64,000 nt of DNA from Escherichia coli (GTDB taxonomy: Bacteria; Pseudomonadota; Gammaproteobacteria; Enterobacterales; Enterobacteriaceae). The notes below the pieces were generated by a model. It was not told the origin of the DNA. It searched no databases and saw only the letters and a list, made by a program, of their open reading frames with translations. Positions 9,700 to 17,725 of the stretch are shown in pieces. A program made the translations under genes and the position numbers. The stretch lies in the NCBI RefSeq assembly GCF_003334785.1, contig NZ_QOWV01000010.1; one strand, written 5' to 3'. Each line of letters begins with the position of its first letter. The stretch's first letter is position 1.

Positions 9700-12252
9700 T
9701 CAGAACAATTCCTGTGCCTCGCCATTATCGATAATGGTCGTTCCCACCTCGTGCACTGCCTGTTGTGTCGGCTGCGTACCTTCGATGAAATACTCTTCGC
9801 GGCTGTTGCCACCATTAGCTAACTGCCCGGTGCTGCGATCGATATTCACCGTCACAATACCCGGTGGCGGCGTCAGCGGCTGCTCCGGCACACCTTCAAG
9901 AACGGCTTTCATATAAGCGTCCCATGCAGGCTGGGCACTCTTGGCACCGCCTTCGTAACCTGAGATCTGATCTTTAATCGCTCCGGAAGCCGTTGTATGA
10001 CCGAGATTACGACGGTGATCATCAAAGCCAATCCAGACCGAGGTCACAACGCCCGGACCGTAACCCGAGAACCACGCATCTTTCGAACTGTTAGTGGTCC
10101 CGGTTTTCCCGCCGATATCGCGACGCTGCAAATCACGACCTGCACGCCAGCCAGTACCCTGCCAGCCTGGCTCACCAAAGATATTGGTGTTCAAAGCACT
10201 CTTAATCAGGAATGCCAGCGGAGTGTTGATGACGTGCGGTGCGTACTCCTGCGCGCCAGTCTTCGCCACTAACGCCTGATTTGCCTGCTCCAGCTGCGGC
10301 ATTGGTACAGAAACATTCTGCTGCTCGCGGGAGATAGCGACATCTTCAACATCGTTATTTTCCAGCACGTTCGATTTCTGCGTATCACCGTAAATCACCG
10401 GAATATCGCATTCCGGGCAGGCTACTTTCGGTTTCGCTTCGAAAATCACGCCGCCCTGATCGTTTTCAATTTTGCTGATAAACCACGGGTCCACCAGGAA
10501 GCCGCCGTTCGCCATGACCGCGTAGCCGCGCGCCACCTGCATTGGGGTGAAGGACGCTGAACCCAGCGCCAGCGATTCGGTGTGGACAATGTTTTGTGCC
10601 GGGAAGCCGAAGCGTTGCAGATATTCTGCAGCGTAGTCGACGCCCATCGCCCGCATTGCGCGTACCATCACCACGTTTTTCGACTGACCCAGCCCCTGAC
10701 GTAAGCGAATTGGACCAGCATACTGCGGTGGTGAGTTCTTCGGCTGCCAGTCAGAACCGGCACTTGCATCCCAGCGAGAAATTGGCACATCGTTCAACAT
10801 ACTTGCCAGCGTCAGACCTTTATCCATCGCCGCGGTGTAGAGGAACGGTTTGATGTTGGAACCCACCTGACGCAGTGCCTGGGTGGCGCGGTTAAACTTG
10901 CTCTGATTGAAATCAAAGCCACCGACCAGCGCCATAACGGCACCGTTTTGCGGATTGATCGACACCAGCGCCGAGTTCACTTCCGGCACTTGTGCCAGCC
11001 ACCATGCATCGCCAACCTGACGAACCCAGATTTGCTGACCCGTTTGCAGAACATCGGTCACTTTACGCGGCGTCGGTCCTTGCTGAGTATCCGAACGGTA
11101 AGGACGCGCCCAGCGAACGCCTTCCATACTCAATGCGACGGTCGACCCGTCCGCCAGCATCGCCGTCGCTTGCTGAGGATTGGCGCTGGTGACTGCGGCA
11201 GGCAGCAGCGGACCATAGGTTGGCAGCGCCTTCAGCGTATCGGTAATCTTGTTGTTATCCCACGCCGACTCGCCCACTTTCCACAGCACATTTGCCGGGC
11301 CGCGATAGCCGTGGCGCATGTCGTAGTCCAGCACGTTATTACGTACCGCCTGCTGCGCGGCCTGCTGCACTTTGCGGGTGATGGTGGTGTAAATGCGATA
11401 ACCGTCTTCATAGGCACTTTCGCCATAACGGTTATACATCTCCTGGCGCACCATTTCGCTCAGGTACGGCGCAGAGAAAGCAATCTCCGGCGCGTGATAG
11501 TTAGCGTTAATCGCCTCAGTGCGTGTCTGATCGAACTGTTGTTGGGTGATATACCCTTCATCCAGCATCCGCGACAGCACGACGTTACGCCGCGCGACGG
11601 CACGATCCATCGAGTAGAGCGGGTTGAAGGTGGAAGGCGCTTTCGGCAGCCCGGCTATCACCGCCATTTCGTTCAGCGTCAGTTGGTCGACCGTTTTTCC
11701 GAAATAGACTTGTGCCGCAGCACCGACACCATAGGCGCGGTAACCAAGGTAAATCTTGTTCAGATAAAGCTCGAGGATCTCGTCTTTCGTCAGCAGCTGT
11801 TCAATGCGAATCGCGAGGAAGACTTCCTTAATCTTACGCATCAGCGTGCGTTCTGGACTGAGGAAGAAGTTTCTCGCCAGCTGCTGGGTAATGGTACTTG
11901 CCCCTTGTGACGCGTGACCGGAGAACAGCGCCACGCTTGCTGCACGGAAGATCCCCACCGGGTCAACGCCGTGATGCTCGTAGAAGCGGCTGTCTTCTGT
12001 CGCGATAAAGGCTTTCACCATCTCCGGTGGGATTTGATCCAACGTAACCGGAATACGACGTTTCTCACCGTATTGAGCAATCAGCTCGCCATCGGCGCTG
12101 TAAATCTGCATCGGAATTTGCAGGCGAACATCTTTTAATGTCGCCACATCCGGCAGTTGTGGCTCGATGTAGCGGTATAGGCCATAAATCGAGCCTGCTC
12201 CCAGCAGAATGCAACAGACTGCAAGGATCAAAAAATACTTTACGAACTTCAC
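9700..12252 (-). CDS. mrcA: Penicillin-binding protein 1A (bifunctional transglycosylase/transpeptidase)
   Basis: Translation matches PBP1a, with the transpeptidase SxxK motif inside SNIKP. The product begins at the GTG encoding VKFVKYF (850 aa); the in-frame ATG at 12276 would add 8 residues. Confidence 0.9.
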   Translation of the reverse strand: MKFVKYFLILAVCCILLGAGSIYGLYRYIEPQLPDVATLKDVRLQIPMQIYSADGELIAQYGEKRRIPVTLDQIPPEMVKAFIATEDSRFYEHHGVDPVGIFRAASVALFSGHASQGASTITQQLARNFFLSPERTLMRKIKEVFLAIRIEQLLTKDEILELYLNKIYLGYRAYGVGAAAQVYFGKTVDQLTLNEMAVIAGLPKAPSTFNPLYSMDRAVARRNVVLSRMLDEGYITQQQFDQTRTEAINANYHAPEIAFSAPYLSEMVRQEMYNRYGESAYEDGYRIYTTITRKVQQAAQQAVRNNVLDYDMRHGYRGPANVLWKVGESAWDNNKITDTLKALPTYGPLLPAAVTSANPQQATAMLADGSTVALSMEGVRWARPYRSDTQQGPTPRKVTDVLQTGQQIWVRQVGDAWWLAQVPEVNSALVSINPQNGAVMALVGGFDFNQSKFNRATQALRQVGSNIKPFLYTAAMDKGLTLASMLNDVPISRWDASAGSDWQPKNSPPQYAGPIRLRQGLGQSKNVVMVRAMRAMGVDYAAEYLQRFGFPAQNIVHTESLALGSASFTPMQVARGYAVMANGGFLVDPWFISKIENDQGGVIFEAKPKVACPECDIPVIYGDTQKSNVLENNDVEDVAISREQQNVSVPMPQLEQANQALVAKTGAQEYAPHVINTPLAFLIKSALNTNIFGEPGWQGTGWRAGRDLQRRDIGGKTGTTNSSKDAWFSGYGPGVVTSVWIGFDDHRRNLGHTTASGAIKDQISGYEGGAKSAQPAWDAYMKAVLEGVPEQPLTPPPGIVTVNIDRSTGQLANGGNSREEYFIEGTQPTQQAVHEVGTTIIDNGEAQELF

Positions 12253-12371
12253 TGGAAATTTCCCATTTAGTTTCATTTGGGCAGTTTATAAACAAACGCG
12301 CGGTAGTATAAAGGCAAGCCAGACGCATTGATATACCCGTCAGAGTGACGGGTGATAAGGAGATCATCACA

Positions 12372-13151
12372 ATGGCATTTAAGATCTGGCAAATTGGTTT
12401 GCATTTACAACAGCAAGAAGCGGTAGCGGTTGCGATCGTGCGGGGCGCAAAAGAATGCTTTTTGCAACGCTGGTGGCGGTTGCCGCTGGAGAACGACATT
12501 ATCAAAGATGGGCGGATTGTTGATGCGCAGCAGCTGGCTAAAACGTTGTTACCGTGGAGTCGCGAACTGCCGCAGCGTCATCACATTATGTTGGCGTTTC
12601 CCGCCAGTCGCACATTACAGCGGTCATTTCCGCGCCCGTCGATGTCCCTTGGTGAGCGGGAGCAAACGGCCTGGCTGTCAGGGACGATGGCCCGCGAGCT
12701 GGATATGGATCCGGACTCCCTGCGCTTCGATTACAGCGAAGACTCACTCAGTCCCGCCTATAACGTGACTGCCGCGCAAAGCAAAGAGCTGGCAACGCTG
12801 CTTACTCTGGCAGAAAGGTTGCGTGTTCATGTGAGCGCGATCACCCCGGATGCCAGTGCATTACAGCGATTCCTGCCTTTTTTACCTTCTCATCAGCAAT
12901 GTCTGGCCTGGCGTGATAACGAACAGTGGCTGTGGGCGACGCGCTATAGCTGGGGGCGCAAACTGGCGGTGGGGATGACTAGCGCGAAGGAGCTGGCGGC
13001 AGCGTTATCCGTTGATCCCGAAAGCGTCGCGATATGTGGCGAAGGCGGATTTGATCCCTGGGAGGCCGTTTCTGTTCGTCAGCCGCCGCTACCGCCGCCA
13101 GGTGGAGACTTTGCCATCGCGCTGGGGCTGGCGCTTGGGAAGGCGTACTGA
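12372..13151 (+). CDS. hofM: Type IV pilus / DNA-uptake assembly protein HofM (PilM-like)
   Basis: Divergent from mrcA and first of five tightly linked genes. Start set at MAFKIWQIG (259 aa); the track ORF begins 9 codons earlier. Confidence 0.85.
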   Translation: MAFKIWQIGLHLQQQEAVAVAIVRGAKECFLQRWWRLPLENDIIKDGRIVDAQQLAKTLLPWSRELPQRHHIMLAFPASRTLQRSFPRPSMSLGEREQTAWLSGTMARELDMDPDSLRFDYSEDSLSPAYNVTAAQSKELATLLTLAERLRVHVSAITPDASALQRFLPFLPSHQQCLAWRDNEQWLWATRYSWGRKLAVGMTSAKELAAALSVDPESVAICGEGGFDPWEAVSVRQPPLPPPGGDFAIALGLALGKAY

Positions 13152-13690
13152 TGAACCCGCCAATTAATTTTTTGCCCTGGCGACAGCAACGCCGGACCGC
13201 TTTTCTGCGTTTCTGGTTGCTGATGTTCGTTGCGCCTCTGCTGCTGGCCGTCGGGATAACGCTAATACTGCGTCTGACAGGCAGCGCCGAAGCGCGCATA
13301 GACGCAGTTTTGCTTCAGGCGGAACAACAACTCGCCCGCAGCTTACAGATAACGAAGCCACGTTTGCTGGAGCAACAGCAGTTACGCGAACAGCGTTCGC
13401 AACGGCAGCGCCAGCGACAATTTACCCGCGACTGGCAATCTGCGCTGGAAGCACTGGCGGCGCTTTTACCCGAGCACGCCTGGCTGACAACGATAAGCTG
13501 GCAGCAGGGAACGCTGGAGATCAAGGGGCTGACAACAAGCATTACCGCGTTAAACGCACTAGAAACGTCACTCCGCCAGGATGCATCTTTTCATCTCAAT
13601 CAGCGGGGAGCCACGCAGCAGGATGCGCAGGGACGCTGGCAATTTGAGTATCAGTTAACAAGGAAGGTTAGCGATGAACATGTTCTTTGA
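13151..13690 (+). CDS. hofN: HofN (PilN-like)
   Basis: 179-aa ORF with an N-terminal transmembrane segment; start overlaps the hofM stop. Confidence 0.85.
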   Translation: MNPPINFLPWRQQRRTAFLRFWLLMFVAPLLLAVGITLILRLTGSAEARIDAVLLQAEQQLARSLQITKPRLLEQQQLREQRSQRQRQRQFTRDWQSALEALAALLPEHAWLTTISWQQGTLEIKGLTTSITALNALETSLRQDASFHLNQRGATQQDAQGRWQFEYQLTRKVSDEHVL

Positions 13691-14114
13691 CTGGTGGTTC
13701 GCCACATCACCCCGCCTCCGCCAGCTTTGCTGGGCATTCTGGTTGCTGATGTTAGTTACGCTCATTTTTCTGTCATCGACACACCATGAAGAGCGCGACG
13801 CATTAATTCGACTACGGGCAAGTCATCACCAGCAGTGGGCCGCACTGTATCGCCTGGTAGACACCACTCCCTTCAGCGAGGAAAAAACGCTGCCCTTTTC
13901 GCCACTGGATTTTCAGTTATCCGGCGCGCAACTGGTTTCCTGGCATCCATCCGCGCAGGGAGGCGAGTTGGCGTTGAAAACGCTGTGGGAAGCAGTGCCG
14001 TCGGCATTTACACGGCTGGCAGAGCGCAACGTCAGCGTGAGCCGTTTTTCGTTAAGCGTGGAAGGTGATGATCTTTTGTTCACGCTACAACTGGAGACGC
14101 CGCATGAGGGTTAA
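13674..14114 (+). CDS. hofO: HofO (PilO-like)
   Basis: 146-aa ORF with an N-terminal transmembrane segment; overlaps the hofN 3' end by 17 nt. Confidence 0.8.
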   Translation: MNMFFDWWFATSPRLRQLCWAFWLLMLVTLIFLSSTHHEERDALIRLRASHHQQWAALYRLVDTTPFSEEKTLPFSPLDFQLSGAQLVSWHPSAQGGELALKTLWEAVPSAFTRLAERNVSVSRFSLSVEGDDLLFTLQLETPHEG

Positions 14115-14508
14115 ACGCTGGTTGTTGGCAGGTATTGCATTGTGCCTTTTAACCGGTATGCGTGACCCTTTTAAACCGCCGGAAGATCTATGCCGGATTA
14201 GCGAACTTAGCCAGTGGCGCTATCAGGGGATGGTAGGGCGAGGCGAGCGCATCATCGGTGTAATAAAAGACGGGCAAAAGAAATGGCGACGGGTGCAGCA
14301 AAACGATGTGCTGGAAAACGGCTGGACAATTTTACAGCTGACGCCAGACGTACTAACGCTGGGTACCGGGACAAACTGCGAACCGCCACAATGGTTGTGG
14401 CAACGGCAAGGAGATACAAATGAAGCAATGGATAGCCGCACTACTGTTGATGCTGATACCCGGCGTACAGGCGGCAAAGCCGCAAAAAGTGACGCTGATG
14501 GTGGATGA
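14104..14508 (+). CDS. hofP: HofP (PilP-like lipoprotein)
   Basis: Start set at the ATG for MRVKRWLLAGIALCLLTG (signal peptide with lipobox-like LTGM), 134 aa; the track ORF starts at an upstream GTG. Confidence 0.8.
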   Translation: MRVKRWLLAGIALCLLTGMRDPFKPPEDLCRISELSQWRYQGMVGRGERIIGVIKDGQKKWRRVQQNDVLENGWTILQLTPDVLTLGTGTNCEPPQWLWQRQGDTNEAMDSRTTVDADTRRTGGKAAKSDADGG

Positions 14509-15658
14509 CGTTCCGGTAGCTCAGGTGTTGCAGGCGCTGGCTGAACAGGAGAAGTTGAACCTGGTCGTGTCGCCAGACGTCAGCGGTACGGTGTCGTTAC
14601 ATCTAACAGATGTTCCCTGGAAGCAGGCACTACAAACTGTAGTGAAAAGCGCCGGACTGATAACGCGGCAGGAAGGCAACATTCTCTCAGTGCATTCCAT
14701 TGCCTGGCAGAATAACAATATCGCCCGCCAGGAGGCGGAGCAGGCGCGGGCGCAGGCAAATCTGCCGCTGGAAAATCGCAGTATAACCCTGCAATACGCC
14801 GACGCGGGAGAACTGGCGAAAGCGGGGGAGAAGCTACTGAGTGCCAAAGGGAGTATGACCGTCGATAAACGCACCAATCGCCTTTTGCTACGAGATAACA
14901 AAACGGCGTTAAGCGCGCTTGAACAGTGGGTAGCGCAAATGGATCTGCCGGTCGGGCAGGTTGAGCTGTCGGCGCATATTGTCACCATTAATGAAAAAAG
15001 TTTGCGTGAGTTAGGCGTGAAATGGACGCTGGCCGATGCGCAACACGCTGGTGGCGTTGGGCAAGTCACCACGCTTGGTAGCGACCTCTCCGTAGCGACG
15101 GCGACAACGCATGTCGGTTTTAACATTGGGCGCATCAACGGACGCTTGCTGGATCTTGAGCTTTCCGCGCTCGAACAAAAACAGCAGCTGGATATTATCG
15201 CCAGTCCGCGTCTGCTGGCCTCACATCTTCAGCCTGCCAGCATTAAACAGGGGAGCGAAATTCCATATCAGGTTTCCAGCGGGGAAAGTGGCGCGACGTC
15301 GGTGGAATTTAAAGAGGCCGTCCTGGGGATGGAGGTCACGCCCACGGTGTTACAAAAAGGTCGCATCCGGCTGAAATTACACATCAGCCAGAACGTTCCG
15401 GGGCAGGTGCTACAGCAGGCCGATGGCGAAGTGCTGGCGATTGATAAGCAGGAGATCGAAACGCAGGTCGAGGTCAAAAGCGGAGAAACGTTGGCGCTGG
15501 GCGGCATTTTTACCCGTAAAAATAAATCGGGTCAGGATAGCGTACCGTTGCTTGGCGACATTCCCTGGTTCGGGCAATTATTTCGTCATGACGGAAAAGA
15601 AGATGAACGACGCGAGTTAGTGGTGTTTATCACGCCACGACTGGTTTCCAGTGAGTAA
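14420..15658 (+). CDS. hofQ: Secretin HofQ (PilQ/ComE-like outer-membrane channel)
   Basis: 412-aa ORF with a signal peptide (MKQWIAALLLMLIPGVQA) and secretin C-terminal domain; overlaps the hofP 3' end. Confidence 0.85.
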   Translation: MKQWIAALLLMLIPGVQAAKPQKVTLMVDDVPVAQVLQALAEQEKLNLVVSPDVSGTVSLHLTDVPWKQALQTVVKSAGLITRQEGNILSVHSIAWQNNNIARQEAEQARAQANLPLENRSITLQYADAGELAKAGEKLLSAKGSMTVDKRTNRLLLRDNKTALSALEQWVAQMDLPVGQVELSAHIVTINEKSLRELGVKWTLADAQHAGGVGQVTTLGSDLSVATATTHVGFNIGRINGRLLDLELSALEQKQQLDIIASPRLLASHLQPASIKQGSEIPYQVSSGESGATSVEFKEAVLGMEVTPTVLQKGRIRLKLHISQNVPGQVLQQADGEVLAIDKQEIETQVEVKSGETLALGGIFTRKNKSGQDSVPLLGDIPWFGQLFRHDGKEDERRELVVFITPRLVSSE

Positions 15659-16058
15659 ACAGCCGTAAAAGCGGTAATGTTTTTACGCTGAACGTGTTTC
15701 ATCTATTTGACGCGCGCAGGTATTTAGCATACAAGGAGTACCGATTTGAGAGTTGGTGCTCTTCGCTGCCTGCGTTCCATGATGATGATTTATCATTCAG
15801 GCGGCATTTTGCTGTCTTTTTTACGCTAATCTTACCCGGTGATTTATCGCCAGAGCGGTGGTAGCAAGGCAGCGCGCTTGCAGCGACCAGATATGCAGAG
15901 GGATGGGTGATTTATTCAGTTGCCAAACCCGCTGGAGTATTGAGATAATTTTCAGTCTGACTCTCGCAATATCTTATGAGGTTTCAGTTCATGTCCTGCG
16001 GCGCTCTCTGAGCGAAGCGGGTTTATCATTAACGAATAGTCTTAGTAGTACCGAAAAA

Positions 16059-16580
16059 ATGGCAGAGAAACGCAATATCTTTCTGGTTGGGCCTATGGGT
16101 GCCGGAAAAAGCACTATTGGGCGCCAGTTAGCTCAACAACTCAATATGGAATTTTACGATTCCGATCAAGAGATTGAGAAACGAACCGGAGCTGATGTGG
16201 GCTGGGTTTTCGATTTAGAAGGCGAAGAAGGCTTCCGCGATCGCGAAGAAAAGGTCATCAATGAGTTGACCGAGAAACAGGGTATTGTGCTGGCTACTGG
16301 CGGCGGCTCTGTGAAATCCCGTGAAACGCGTAACCGTCTTTCCGCTCGTGGCGTTGTCGTTTATCTTGAAACGACCATCGAAAAGCAACTTGCACGCACG
16401 CAGCGTGATAAAAAACGCCCGTTGCTGCACGTTGAAACACCGCCGCGTGAAGTTCTGGAAGCGTTGGCCAATGAACGCAATCCGCTGTATGAAGAGATTG
16501 CCGACGTGACCATTCGTACTGATGATCAAAGCGCTAAAGTGGTTGCAAACCAGATTATTCACATGCTGGAAAGCAACTAA
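16059..16580 (+). CDS. aroK: Shikimate kinase I
   Basis: 173-aa product from [19 protein letters not shown] (Walker A). The track ORF 15858..16580 is an in-frame upstream extension. Confidence 0.95.
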
Positions 16581-16636: not shown

Positions 16637-17725
16637 ATGGAGAGGATTGTCGTTACTCTCGGGGAACGTAGTTACCCAATTACCATCGCATCTGGTTTGT
16701 TTAATGAACCAGCTTCATTCTTACCGCTGAAATCGGGCGAGCAGGTCATGTTGGTCACCAACGAAACCCTGGCTCCTCTGTATCTCGATAAGGTCCGCGG
16801 CGTACTTGAACAGGCGGGTGTTAACGTCGATAGCGTTATCCTCCCTGACGGCGAGCAGTATAAAAGCCTGGCTGTACTCGATACCGTCTTTACGGCGTTG
16901 TTACAAAAACCGCATGGTCGCGATACTACGCTGGTGGCGCTTGGCGGCGGCGTAGTGGGCGATCTGACCGGCTTCGCGGCGGCGAGTTATCAGCGCGGTG
17001 TCCGTTTCATTCAAGTCCCGACGACGTTACTGTCGCAGGTCGATTCCTCCGTTGGCGGCAAAACTGCGGTCAACCATCCCCTCGGTAAAAACATGATTGG
17101 CGCGTTCTACCAACCTGCTTCAGTGGTGGTGGATCTCGACTGTCTGAAAACGCTTCCCCCGCGTGAGTTAGCGTCGGGGCTGGCAGAAGTCATCAAATAC
17201 GGCATTATTCTTGACGGTGCGTTTTTTAACTGGCTGGAAGAGAATCTGGATGCGTTGTTGCGTCTGGACGGTCCGGCAATGGCGTACTGTATTCGCCGTT
17301 GTTGTGAACTGAAGGCAGAAGTTGTCGCCGCCGACGAGCGCGAAACCGGGTTACGTGCTTTACTGAATCTGGGACACACCTTTGGTCATGCCATTGAAGC
17401 TGAAATGGGGTATGGCAATTGGTTACATGGTGAAGCGGTCGCTGCGGGTATGGTGATGGCGGCGCGGACGTCGGAACGTCTCGGGCAGTTTAGTTCTGCC
17501 GAAACGCAGCGTATTATAACCCTGCTCAAGCGGGCTGGGTTACCGGTCAATGGGCCGCGCGAAATGTCCGCGCAGGCGTATTTACCGCATATGCTGCGTG
17601 ACAAGAAAGTCCTTGCGGGAGAGATGCGCTTAATTCTTCCGTTGGCAATTGGTAAGAGTGAAGTTCGCAGCGGCGTTTCGCACGAGCTTGTTCTTAACGC
17701 CATTGCCGATTGTCAATCAGCGTAA
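16637..17725 (+). CDS. aroB: 3-dehydroquinate synthase
   Basis: 362-aa translation matches AroB; immediately downstream of aroK. Confidence 0.95.

Follow-up and report, generated by a model that had tools for sequence, protein, structure and literature searches.

Can two bacterial genes on the same strand really share as many as 89 nucleotides (nt) of coding sequence? This question is raised by hofP and hofQ, the last two genes of the hofMNOPQ cluster (12372..15658, + strand) in a 64,000-nt stretch of Escherichia coli K-12 DNA (assembly GCF_003334785.1, contig NZ_QOWV01000010.1), the whole of which is called the window below. The annotated start of hofQ (14420..15658, +) lies well upstream of the end of hofP (14104..14508, +), and the segment at 14420..14508 of the + strand would thus code for both proteins. 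It comprises hofQ codons 1-30, which encode the signal peptide and the beginning of the N0 domain, as well as hofP codons 106-134 with the stop codon, the hofQ frame being +1 relative to that of hofP. Long same-strand overlaps are routinely flagged as annotation errors. In the survey of Palleja et al., none of 715 co-directional overlaps that exceeded 60 bp was judged real, and that of holD-rimI (32-56 bp) was the longest real one (PMC2478687). The hofP/hofQ pair is absent from the supplementary lists of that study, and a literature search found no paper discussing its overlap.

The comparisons reported here indicate that hofP/hofQ is a genuine dual-coding co-directional overlap, with selection in both frames. 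The pair is at odds with the published view that real co-directional overlaps stay within 60 bp, and it provides a counter-example in the best-studied bacterial genome. The locus is otherwise ordinary, and the added value of the analysis lies in identifying a long overlap as apparently authentic dual coding, together with a reason for its tolerance. Like hofP/hofQ, the holD-rimI overlap is co-directional and conserved across Enterobacteria, and both of its genes have the lengths of their orthologues. In contrast with holD-rimI, the hofP/hofQ overlap is longer (89 nt, and 56-140 nt across relatives) and above the 60-bp limit, it falls on a signal peptide and a disordered tail, and direct tests were made for selection in each of the two frames.

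Conservation of the hofP/hofQ overlap

We analysed one genome per species, i.e. 80 loci of Enterobacteriaceae, and measured the hofP/hofQ overlap in 78 of them. A length of 89 nt was found in 36 species, one of 92 nt in 10 and one of 86 nt in 7; 67 of the 78 have between 77 and 140 nt. Shorter overlaps are found in Phytobacter/Kosakonia (38 nt) and in five species with 59-62 nt, and in two Leclercia-like genomes the genes overlap in the other frame, by the 4 nt ATGA.

A word-indexed profile search gave no match beyond the Enterobacteriaceae, and an exhaustive search of representative sequences reached further relatives. In the latter, distant HofP proteins with 19-31% identity also carry polar tails, of 20-35 residues. 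Five distant contigs, whose HofQ and HofP proteins are respectively 47-59% and approximately 30% identical to those of E. coli, have the same frame relation between the two genes, with overlaps of 56-98 nt. The co-oriented gene order M-N-O-P-Q is common to the 80 species and the distant contigs, and the synteny mrcA-hofMNOPQ-aroK-aroB is kept in two of those five contigs. Judging from these comparisons, the long-overlap arrangement is old and family-wide.

Openness of the hofP frame

The hofP frame has no stop codon before 14420 and continues across the part of hofQ that encodes the signal peptide, which it reads in the -1 frame. In this register, each third codon position of hofP coincides with a second codon position of hofQ. 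Because the codons of hydrophobic residues and those of Ala, Pro, Ser and Thr have T or C at that position, whereas stop codons need A or G, the hofP frame is open almost automatically. A signal peptide read one base off can thus hardly give stops and yields a polar, disordered peptide, which offers a reason why the overlap is tolerated.

In E. coli, just two codon junctions before the real hofP stop could yield a stop codon through a synonymous change in hofQ. The TGA that ends hofP (14506..14508, +) straddles two hofQ codons of the conserved VVDD motif, taking its T from Asp29 (GAT) and its GA from Asp30 (GAC). In 52 species hofP is likewise ended by the TGA embedded in GAT-GAN; where Asp29 is encoded by GAC, hofP reads on and the overlap reaches 122-140 nt.

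The openness of the frame was assessed by randomising the synonymous codons of hofQ while keeping the HofQ protein sequence fixed. The randomised hofP frame is open with a mean probability of 0.63 (approximately 0.89 for E. coli-like sequences). The observed frame is open in 63 of 73 species, versus 45.9 expected under this randomisation. Thus, most of the overlap comes free from hofQ codons, with a modest excess of open frames. The other off-frame was dropped as a control for openness since it is trivially closed, ATG followed by A giving TGA. Frame logic of this kind could help annotation pipelines separate real long overlaps from artefacts, and it predicts that 3' extensions of upstream genes should favour genes of exported proteins.

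Selection in the hofP frame

The hofQ codons located under the hofP tail display two unusual features, the first of which is a deficit of synonymous differences. In 20 independent sister pairs, the four-fold degenerate sites of hofQ codons 14-30 that are covered by hofP differ in 26 of 200 cases, versus 55.3 expected (ratio 0.47, p=5e-7). In contrast, 9 of the 18 uncovered four-fold sites in the same codon range differ, versus 5.7 expected. Similarly, in Phytobacter/Kosakonia, where hofP ends after 38 nt, hofQ codons 14-30 are unconstrained (11/30 sites differ, versus 0.33 gene-wide). Column tests performed by genus gave p=0.0018 for Klebsiella, p=0.0096 for Enterobacter and p=0.056 for Escherichia, versus p=0.80 for the short-overlap Phytobacter/Kosakonia.

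The second feature is an avoidance of T at third positions of hofQ, where it amounts to 4.4% under the tail and 20.1% elsewhere. This avoidance depends on the residue that T would specify in the hofP frame. No T was observed at the 412 sites where it would encode Cys (85.7 expected), and the same holds for the 37 representatives with less than 90% identity (0 observed, 36.4 expected). T encoding Tyr was found 6 times for 36.3 expected, T encoding Trp twice for 8.1, T encoding Phe 8 times for 15.4 and T encoding Ser 59 times for 77.6. The ratio of observed to expected numbers is therefore graded, from 0.00 for Cys through 0.17 for Tyr and 0.25 for Trp to 0.76 for Ser. In hofQ codons of the same region past the hofP stop, T is not depleted (32 versus 26.8 expected), and in the rest of hofQ Cys-type T in the same dinucleotide context is found 724 times for 838 expected. 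No depletion of T was found in the N-terminal regions of hofM, hofN, hofO and hofP either.

Given the contrasts between covered and uncovered sites, the residue-graded avoidance of T and the clean controls, the hofP tail appears to be translated and under protein-level selection. That selection would act against harmful residues, i.e. stops, Cys and aromatics, and not for a motif.

The HofP protein and its tail

HofP begins with a helix at its N-terminus, continues with a PilP-like beta domain (residues ~30-103) and ends in a disordered tail (residues 106-134). In an AlphaFold2 model built from the 78 orthologues, the predicted local distance difference test score is 85-92 at residues 30-101 and below 50 at residues 110-134. 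A Foldseek search returned PilP structures as its best eight PDB matches (including 3jc8_Pa, 2ivw, 2lc4 and 2y4x/y), with target-normalised TM-scores up to 0.70. The HofP sequence profile matches Myxococcus xanthus PilP weakly (E=0.018). This model thus indicates that HofP carries a PilP fold.

The 29 residues of the tail are rich in Gly, Ala, Arg and Asp and are predicted to be disordered. In every species with a long overlap the tail is devoid of cysteine. In the body of the protein, Cys30 (14191-14193) and Cys92 (14377-14379) are invariant in the 78 orthologues and in the distant relatives, which suggests that they form a structural disulfide in the PilP-like domain. The avoidance of Cys in the tail may protect their pairing in the periplasm. 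The alignment of the 78 sequences revealed no conserved Cys before Cys30, and Cys14 of the E. coli protein is not conserved. HofP therefore differs from lipoprotein PilP in having no conserved lipobox Cys, and also in its additional tail encoded inside hofQ.

A probable passenger tail or a possible functional device

Taken as a whole, these features are probably best explained by a packed operon under Sxy and CRP control, in which hofQ is initiated de novo and hofP is extended by a translated but harmless passenger tail. hofMNOPQ would be a tightly packed operon for a PilMNOP-like assembly platform and the PilQ-type secretin of the competence or DNA-uptake pilus of E. coli, each gene having its Shine-Dalgarno (SD) sequence inside the end of the one before it. 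Ribosomes translating hofP would continue across the hofQ ribosome-binding site (RBS) and then through the signal-peptide codons in the -1 frame. The hofP frame would close at the first suitable polar codon pair past the signal peptide, mostly at the TGA in the GAT-GAN of VVDD, and the product would be a HofP protein with a disordered C-terminal tail of 29 residues. Selection would keep this tail without stops, Cys and aromatics, thereby constraining the synonymous codons of hofQ, and would otherwise leave its sequence and exact length free. The tail, which has been lost in several lineages, would mainly be a tolerated passenger kept harmless and most likely has no specific function. Local translational coupling fades within about 20-40 nt (PMC10666635). 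Termination-reinitiation does not seem plausible for an 89-nt overlap, and hofQ is most likely initiated de novo at its strong RBS, which is predicted to be unstructured.

Alternatively, the overlap might be a functional device. The HofP tail might have a specific role, such as contacting the N0 domain of HofQ or the cell wall, or the ribosomes on hofP might gate HofQ synthesis in proportion to its PilP-like partner. Such a device would fit with the persistence of the frame relation and of a long overlap down to 47-59% HofQ identity, with the number of open frames beyond that predicted by synonymous randomisation and with purifying selection in the hofP frame. In addition, PilP is known to bind the N0 domain of PilQ, through a periplasmic beta-sandwich domain, and PDB entry 4av2 contains both chains. 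However, the tail can hardly be aligned between genera, and the few positions conserved in it are those that fall on features of hofQ. Its end is set by codon choice in hofQ, and at least six independent truncations, to overlaps of 38-77 nt, and one shift to the 4-nt ATGA overlap have taken place in operons that are otherwise intact. Selection would be directed against stops, Cys and aromatics and not for a motif, and with an RBS predicted to be strong and unstructured, no unmasking is needed. We thus regard a functional device as rather unlikely. The same low probability applies to the idea of an ancient, selected coupling device that ties a potentially toxic secretin to its partner by way of ribosome passage and a flexible, Cys-free tail. 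If true, the latter would be a documented exception to the limit of ~60 bp for real co-directional overlaps.

Several points weigh against the passenger tail or soften the evidence behind it. The excess of open frames (63 versus 45.9), together with the retention of the overlap down to 47% HofQ identity, could mean that the tail or the overlap is positively useful. Synonymous divergence is also suppressed at the 5' ends of mrcA, aroK and aroB, and a general gene-start effect may thus account for part of the constraint on hofQ. The set of uncovered control sites is small, with 18 four-fold sites and approximately 110 sites eligible for T. The species are related, and the pooled counts overstate their independence, which the use of sister pairs and of representatives with less than 90% identity limits. 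Finally, translation of both frames across 14420-14508 is deduced from comparisons, and expression of the operon is minimal in laboratory cultures.

The gene-start effect deserves consideration as an alternative in its own right, in which the tail would not be selected at the protein level and the constraint on the 5' codons of hofQ would reflect translation initiation at the RNA level or a general property of gene starts. The first 29 codons of mrcA, aroK and aroB are indeed even more suppressed than those of hofQ, with ratios of four-fold divergence of 0-0.4; the starts of hofM, hofN, hofO and hofP are not suppressed. However, in hofQ the suppression follows hofP coverage and not the distance from the hofQ start, as indicated by the ratios of 0.47 for covered and ~1.6 for uncovered sites and by the situation in Phytobacter/Kosakonia. 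Moreover, the depletion of T is graded by the hofP-frame residue and does not extend to uncovered codons, the remainder of hofQ or the starts of hofM, hofN, hofO and hofP. No significant RNA structure was found around the hofQ initiation region (z=-0.61) and no conserved consensus fold; both unmasking of the RBS and an RNA element behind the synonymous constraint were ruled out on these grounds. A constraint of RNA or gene-start origin alone is thus very unlikely. A plain comparison of four-fold sites between the overlap and the rest of hofQ, which ranked the overlap last in divergence among 14 segments of hofQ in four genera out of four, was set aside as confounded, given that the starts of mrcA, aroK and aroB behave alike. 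The covered-versus-uncovered and T-avoidance tests were used instead.

The start site of hofQ

The ATG at 14420 is the first start codon of the hofQ open reading frame (ORF) after the upstream in-frame stop. It is preceded at a distance of 6 nt by the SD sequence AAGGAG (14408..14413, +), which lies inside hofP codons Q102-G103-D104, with G103 nearly invariant. Among the candidate starts of hofQ, only that at 14420 has an SD, and it alone gives a hydrophobic N-terminus. On the basis of hydropathy and start-codon analyses, the signal peptide MKQWIAALLLMLIPGVQA is encoded at 14420..14473 (+), signal peptidase I probably cleaves at VQA|A, and the predicted mature HofQ begins with AKPQ directly after it. 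Solved PilQ structures align to HofQ from residue 22-23 onward. A start codon is present at the homologous position in 78 of 78 species of Enterobacteriaceae (ATG in 73 and GTG in 5), an SD of at least 4 nt in 77 of 78, and a hydrophobic signal peptide is kept at the N-terminus of HofQ in all species examined.

The earlier note on this DNA had proposed that the upstream ATG (MKQWIAALLL...) might be the true start of hofQ, in which case the signal peptide would be encoded within the 3' end of hofP. The SD, the signal peptide, the conserved start codon and the structural alignment with PilQ all argue for this start, and the signal-peptide segment 14420-14473 falls inside hofP (14104-14508). According to the same note, initiation of hofQ after the hofP stop would speak against the proposal; the downstream candidates found have neither an SD nor a signal peptide.

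A third alternative is nevertheless that the hofQ start is misannotated and that translation begins after the hofP stop, leaving no true overlap. Palleja et al. 2008 attributed all 715 co-directional overlaps that exceeded 60 bp to mispredictions, mostly to a 5' extension of the downstream gene (PMC2478687). However, hofP and hofQ pass the test that these authors used, in that both are as long as their orthologues, with 130-138 residues for HofP in most species and 409-415 for HofQ. Starts located downstream of the hofP stop (14525 GTG, 14528 TTG, 14555 TTG and others) would cost HofQ its signal peptide and the first N0 strand, and a strong SD with proper spacing is found only at 14420. The start codon at the homologous site is retained in all 78 species, including those with ATG-to-GTG changes. 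A secretin requires a signal peptide to reach the outer membrane, and a HofQ protein devoid of one would be unable to do so. Misannotation is thus highly improbable.

Lastly, we give virtually no credit to programmed frameshifting or recoding towards a HofP-HofQ fusion. It is suggested by a 517-residue fusion ORF in public data (P0075, a metagenome/ENA cluster with 29 member sequences) and by an A-run, CAAAAAG (14483-14489), inside the overlap. However, loss of 1 nt in GCCGCA accounts for P0075, the A-run lacks conservation, RNA folding gave no stimulatory structure and the fusion is devoid of the HofQ signal peptide. The P0075 deletion, at ~14480, joins the HofP tail to mature HofQ and might reflect natural variation or an error in sequencing.

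Gene content of the cluster

The coordinates, gene boundaries and overlaps of hofMNOPQ are already standard annotation, and its regulation and role in DNA uptake are likewise known. RefSeq annotation of an MG1655-derived genome has the same five coding sequences and overlaps as those read from the window. A 3.5-kb query is 100% identical to MG1655-derived genomes and was found in 5,426 of 5,426 complete E. coli genomes. According to the ORF list and RefSeq, hofM (12372..13151, +; 259 residues) is preceded by the SD sequence TAAGGAG. It overlaps by 1 nt, in TGATG, with hofN (13151..13690, +; 179 residues), which in turn overlaps by 17 nt with hofO (13674..14114, +; 146 residues). The overlap between hofO and hofP (134 residues) is 11 nt. 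The cluster ends with hofQ (412 residues), which codes for a PilQ-type outer-membrane secretin, and is followed in RefSeq by aroK and aroB.

The overlaps of 17, 11 and 89 nt claimed in the earlier note are exact, both in the sequence and in RefSeq. Their description as unusually large applies to that of 89 nt. Those of 17 and 11 nt belong to the common phase series of gene overlaps (-8/-11/-14...) (PMC10666635). Across the Enterobacteriaceae, the hofN/hofO overlap is 17 nt in 48 of 80 species, and the hofO/hofP overlap is 11 nt in 68 of 78-80. The overlaps of 1, 11 and 17 nt are compatible with local translational coupling.

The cluster had also been described as PilMNOP-like. This holds for HofN, HofP and HofQ and is weak by sequence for HofM and HofO. 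Residues 99-166 of HofN match Pfam PilN (PF05137, E=3.1e-9), and HofP, whose fold is that of PilP in the model, matches its own Pfam family (HofP, E=4e-80). The HofM matches are all weak: TIGR01175 (E=0.004, 16 bits for a cut-off of 133), Pfam PilM_2 (E=0.047) and T2SSL (E=0.0024). The Pfam match of HofO is confined to its own family, HofO (PF25319, E=2e-25). HofQ matches NCBIfam NF007851 with 855 bits (cut-off 598) and TIGR02515 PilQ with 449 bits (cut-off 284), and its residues 23-409 match PDB 6w6m with E=2e-74; 4av2 and 6ve2 are also matched. HofQ has the N0/N1 and secretin domains and the signal peptide of a PilQ-type secretin.

The cluster thus resembles the pilMNOPQ genes of the type IVa pili of Pseudomonas aeruginosa, Neisseria meningitidis, M. 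xanthus and Vibrio cholerae, which encode the PilQ secretin and the alignment subcomplex of the inner membrane, with the same M-N-O-P-Q order, a PilQ-type secretin, a PilN domain and a PilP fold. In contrast, HofM and HofO are highly diverged, with weak matches of HofM to PilM, an actin-like cytoplasmic protein, and a separate family for HofO. HofQ is short compared with the solved PilQs and devoid of AMIN domains, its alignment starting at PilQ residue ~158-338.

Between genera, the HofQ proteins are 67-86% identical, and HofM, HofN, HofO and HofP merely 28-68% (loci L003-L082). From these identities, the secretin appears to evolve much more slowly than the assembly partners encoded in the same operon. 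The hof cluster is sporadically inactivated in single strains. In Escherichia albertii NBRC 107761 (L005), hofP is interrupted by a nonsense codon after residue 33; in E. coli CNR20180903 (L002), hofQ ends after approximately 49 codons owing to a rearrangement next to barA; and E. coli EC09 has an IS1A insertion inside the cluster, listed between hofM and hofN.

Regulation and the mrcA-hofM intergenic region

Upstream of hofM, the divergent neighbour mrcA (9700..12252, - strand in the ORF list; PBP1a) has a GTG start at 12252 in RefSeq. Its start, which reads CAC on the + strand (12250-12252), is invariant in 18 genera, whereas genera differ at the alternative upstream ATG (12276), to which the ORF could be extended. 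The gap between the GTG and the ATG of hofM measures 119 bp, in agreement with the ~120 bp noted earlier.

The cluster had been called cryptic, which needs qualifying. Sxy induces yrfD (hofM) 16-fold, and this induction is lost in a crp mutant (PMC1635313). Sxy- and CRP-dependent induction was confirmed, and DNA uptake that depends on Sxy requires hofQ (PMC3330819). The comABCDE genes of Haemophilus influenzae, an operon of the competence regulon governed by CRP-S sites and Sxy/TfoX, are orthologous to yrfD-hofQ, they share induction by Sxy and CRP, and their CRP-S site overlaps the upstream ORF, as do the candidate sites of E. coli (PMC1635313). Unlike H. influenzae, E. coli does not undergo natural transformation under any known condition.

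We mapped the primers of the published band-shift experiment to the window (PMC1635313). The CRP-bound fragment of the hofM promoter corresponds to 12096..12221 (+) and lies wholly within mrcA codons ~11-52. Candidate CRP-S sites, each with 7 of 10 core bases, are located at its two ends (12104-12125 and 12185-12206), and the second one falls within a block invariant between genera. A scan of the window for the CRP-S motif (TGCGA-N6-TCGCA type) gave 289 matches versus 337 expected from shuffled sequences, which is not above chance and is uninformative alone; the CRP-S assignment therefore rests on the published electrophoretic mobility shift assay and quantitative PCR. According to the published work, CRP and Sxy would thus switch the operon on through sites inside the 5' coding region of mrcA.

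The segment 12186-12337, which covers mrcA codons 1-22 and intergenic DNA, is nearly invariant across 18 genera of Enterobacteriaceae and better conserved than the flanking coding DNA. In the first 29 codons of mrcA, four-fold divergence is 0-0.10, versus 0.25-0.44 in the rest of the gene. In the 18-genus alignment, the nearly invariant intergenic block at 12277..12337 contains TTTATA (12285-12290)-N16-TATAAA (12307-12312), which presents the same hexamers on both strands. This might be a shared core promoter, back-to-back or bidirectional. A simple sigma-70 scan of the divergent region gave counts at chance level, and TTTATA-N16-TATAAA went unreported, since the scan's rule does not accept the final A of the second hexamer. 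The regulatory regions of the mrcA and hof units clearly interpenetrate, and an overlap of the mrcA and hofM promoters themselves, which the earlier note had taken to be necessary, is plausible. No Rfam match was found anywhere in the 64-kb window.

Transcription unit and downstream region

The literature treats yrfD-hofQ as an operon (PMC1635313). Within the cluster, our scans detected no terminator-like or promoter-like site on the + strand, and the first terminator-like hairpin followed by a T-run lies past it (15662..15685, +); both are weak evidence, as the scan counts are at chance level. They are nevertheless consistent with transcription of hofM-hofQ as one unit.

The gap between hofQ and aroK (15659-16058) is non-coding and unusually long, with 400 bp. 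It contains terminator-like hairpins at 15662-15675 and 15799-15817 and a promoter-like site at 15920-15949 (10 of 12 matches, extended TG). Further downstream, synonymous divergence within four genera is 0-0.08 in the first 29 codons of aroK (16059-16145) and aroB (16637-16723), versus 0.03-0.32 in the remainder of these genes, and this gene-start effect is much stronger than in the hof genes.

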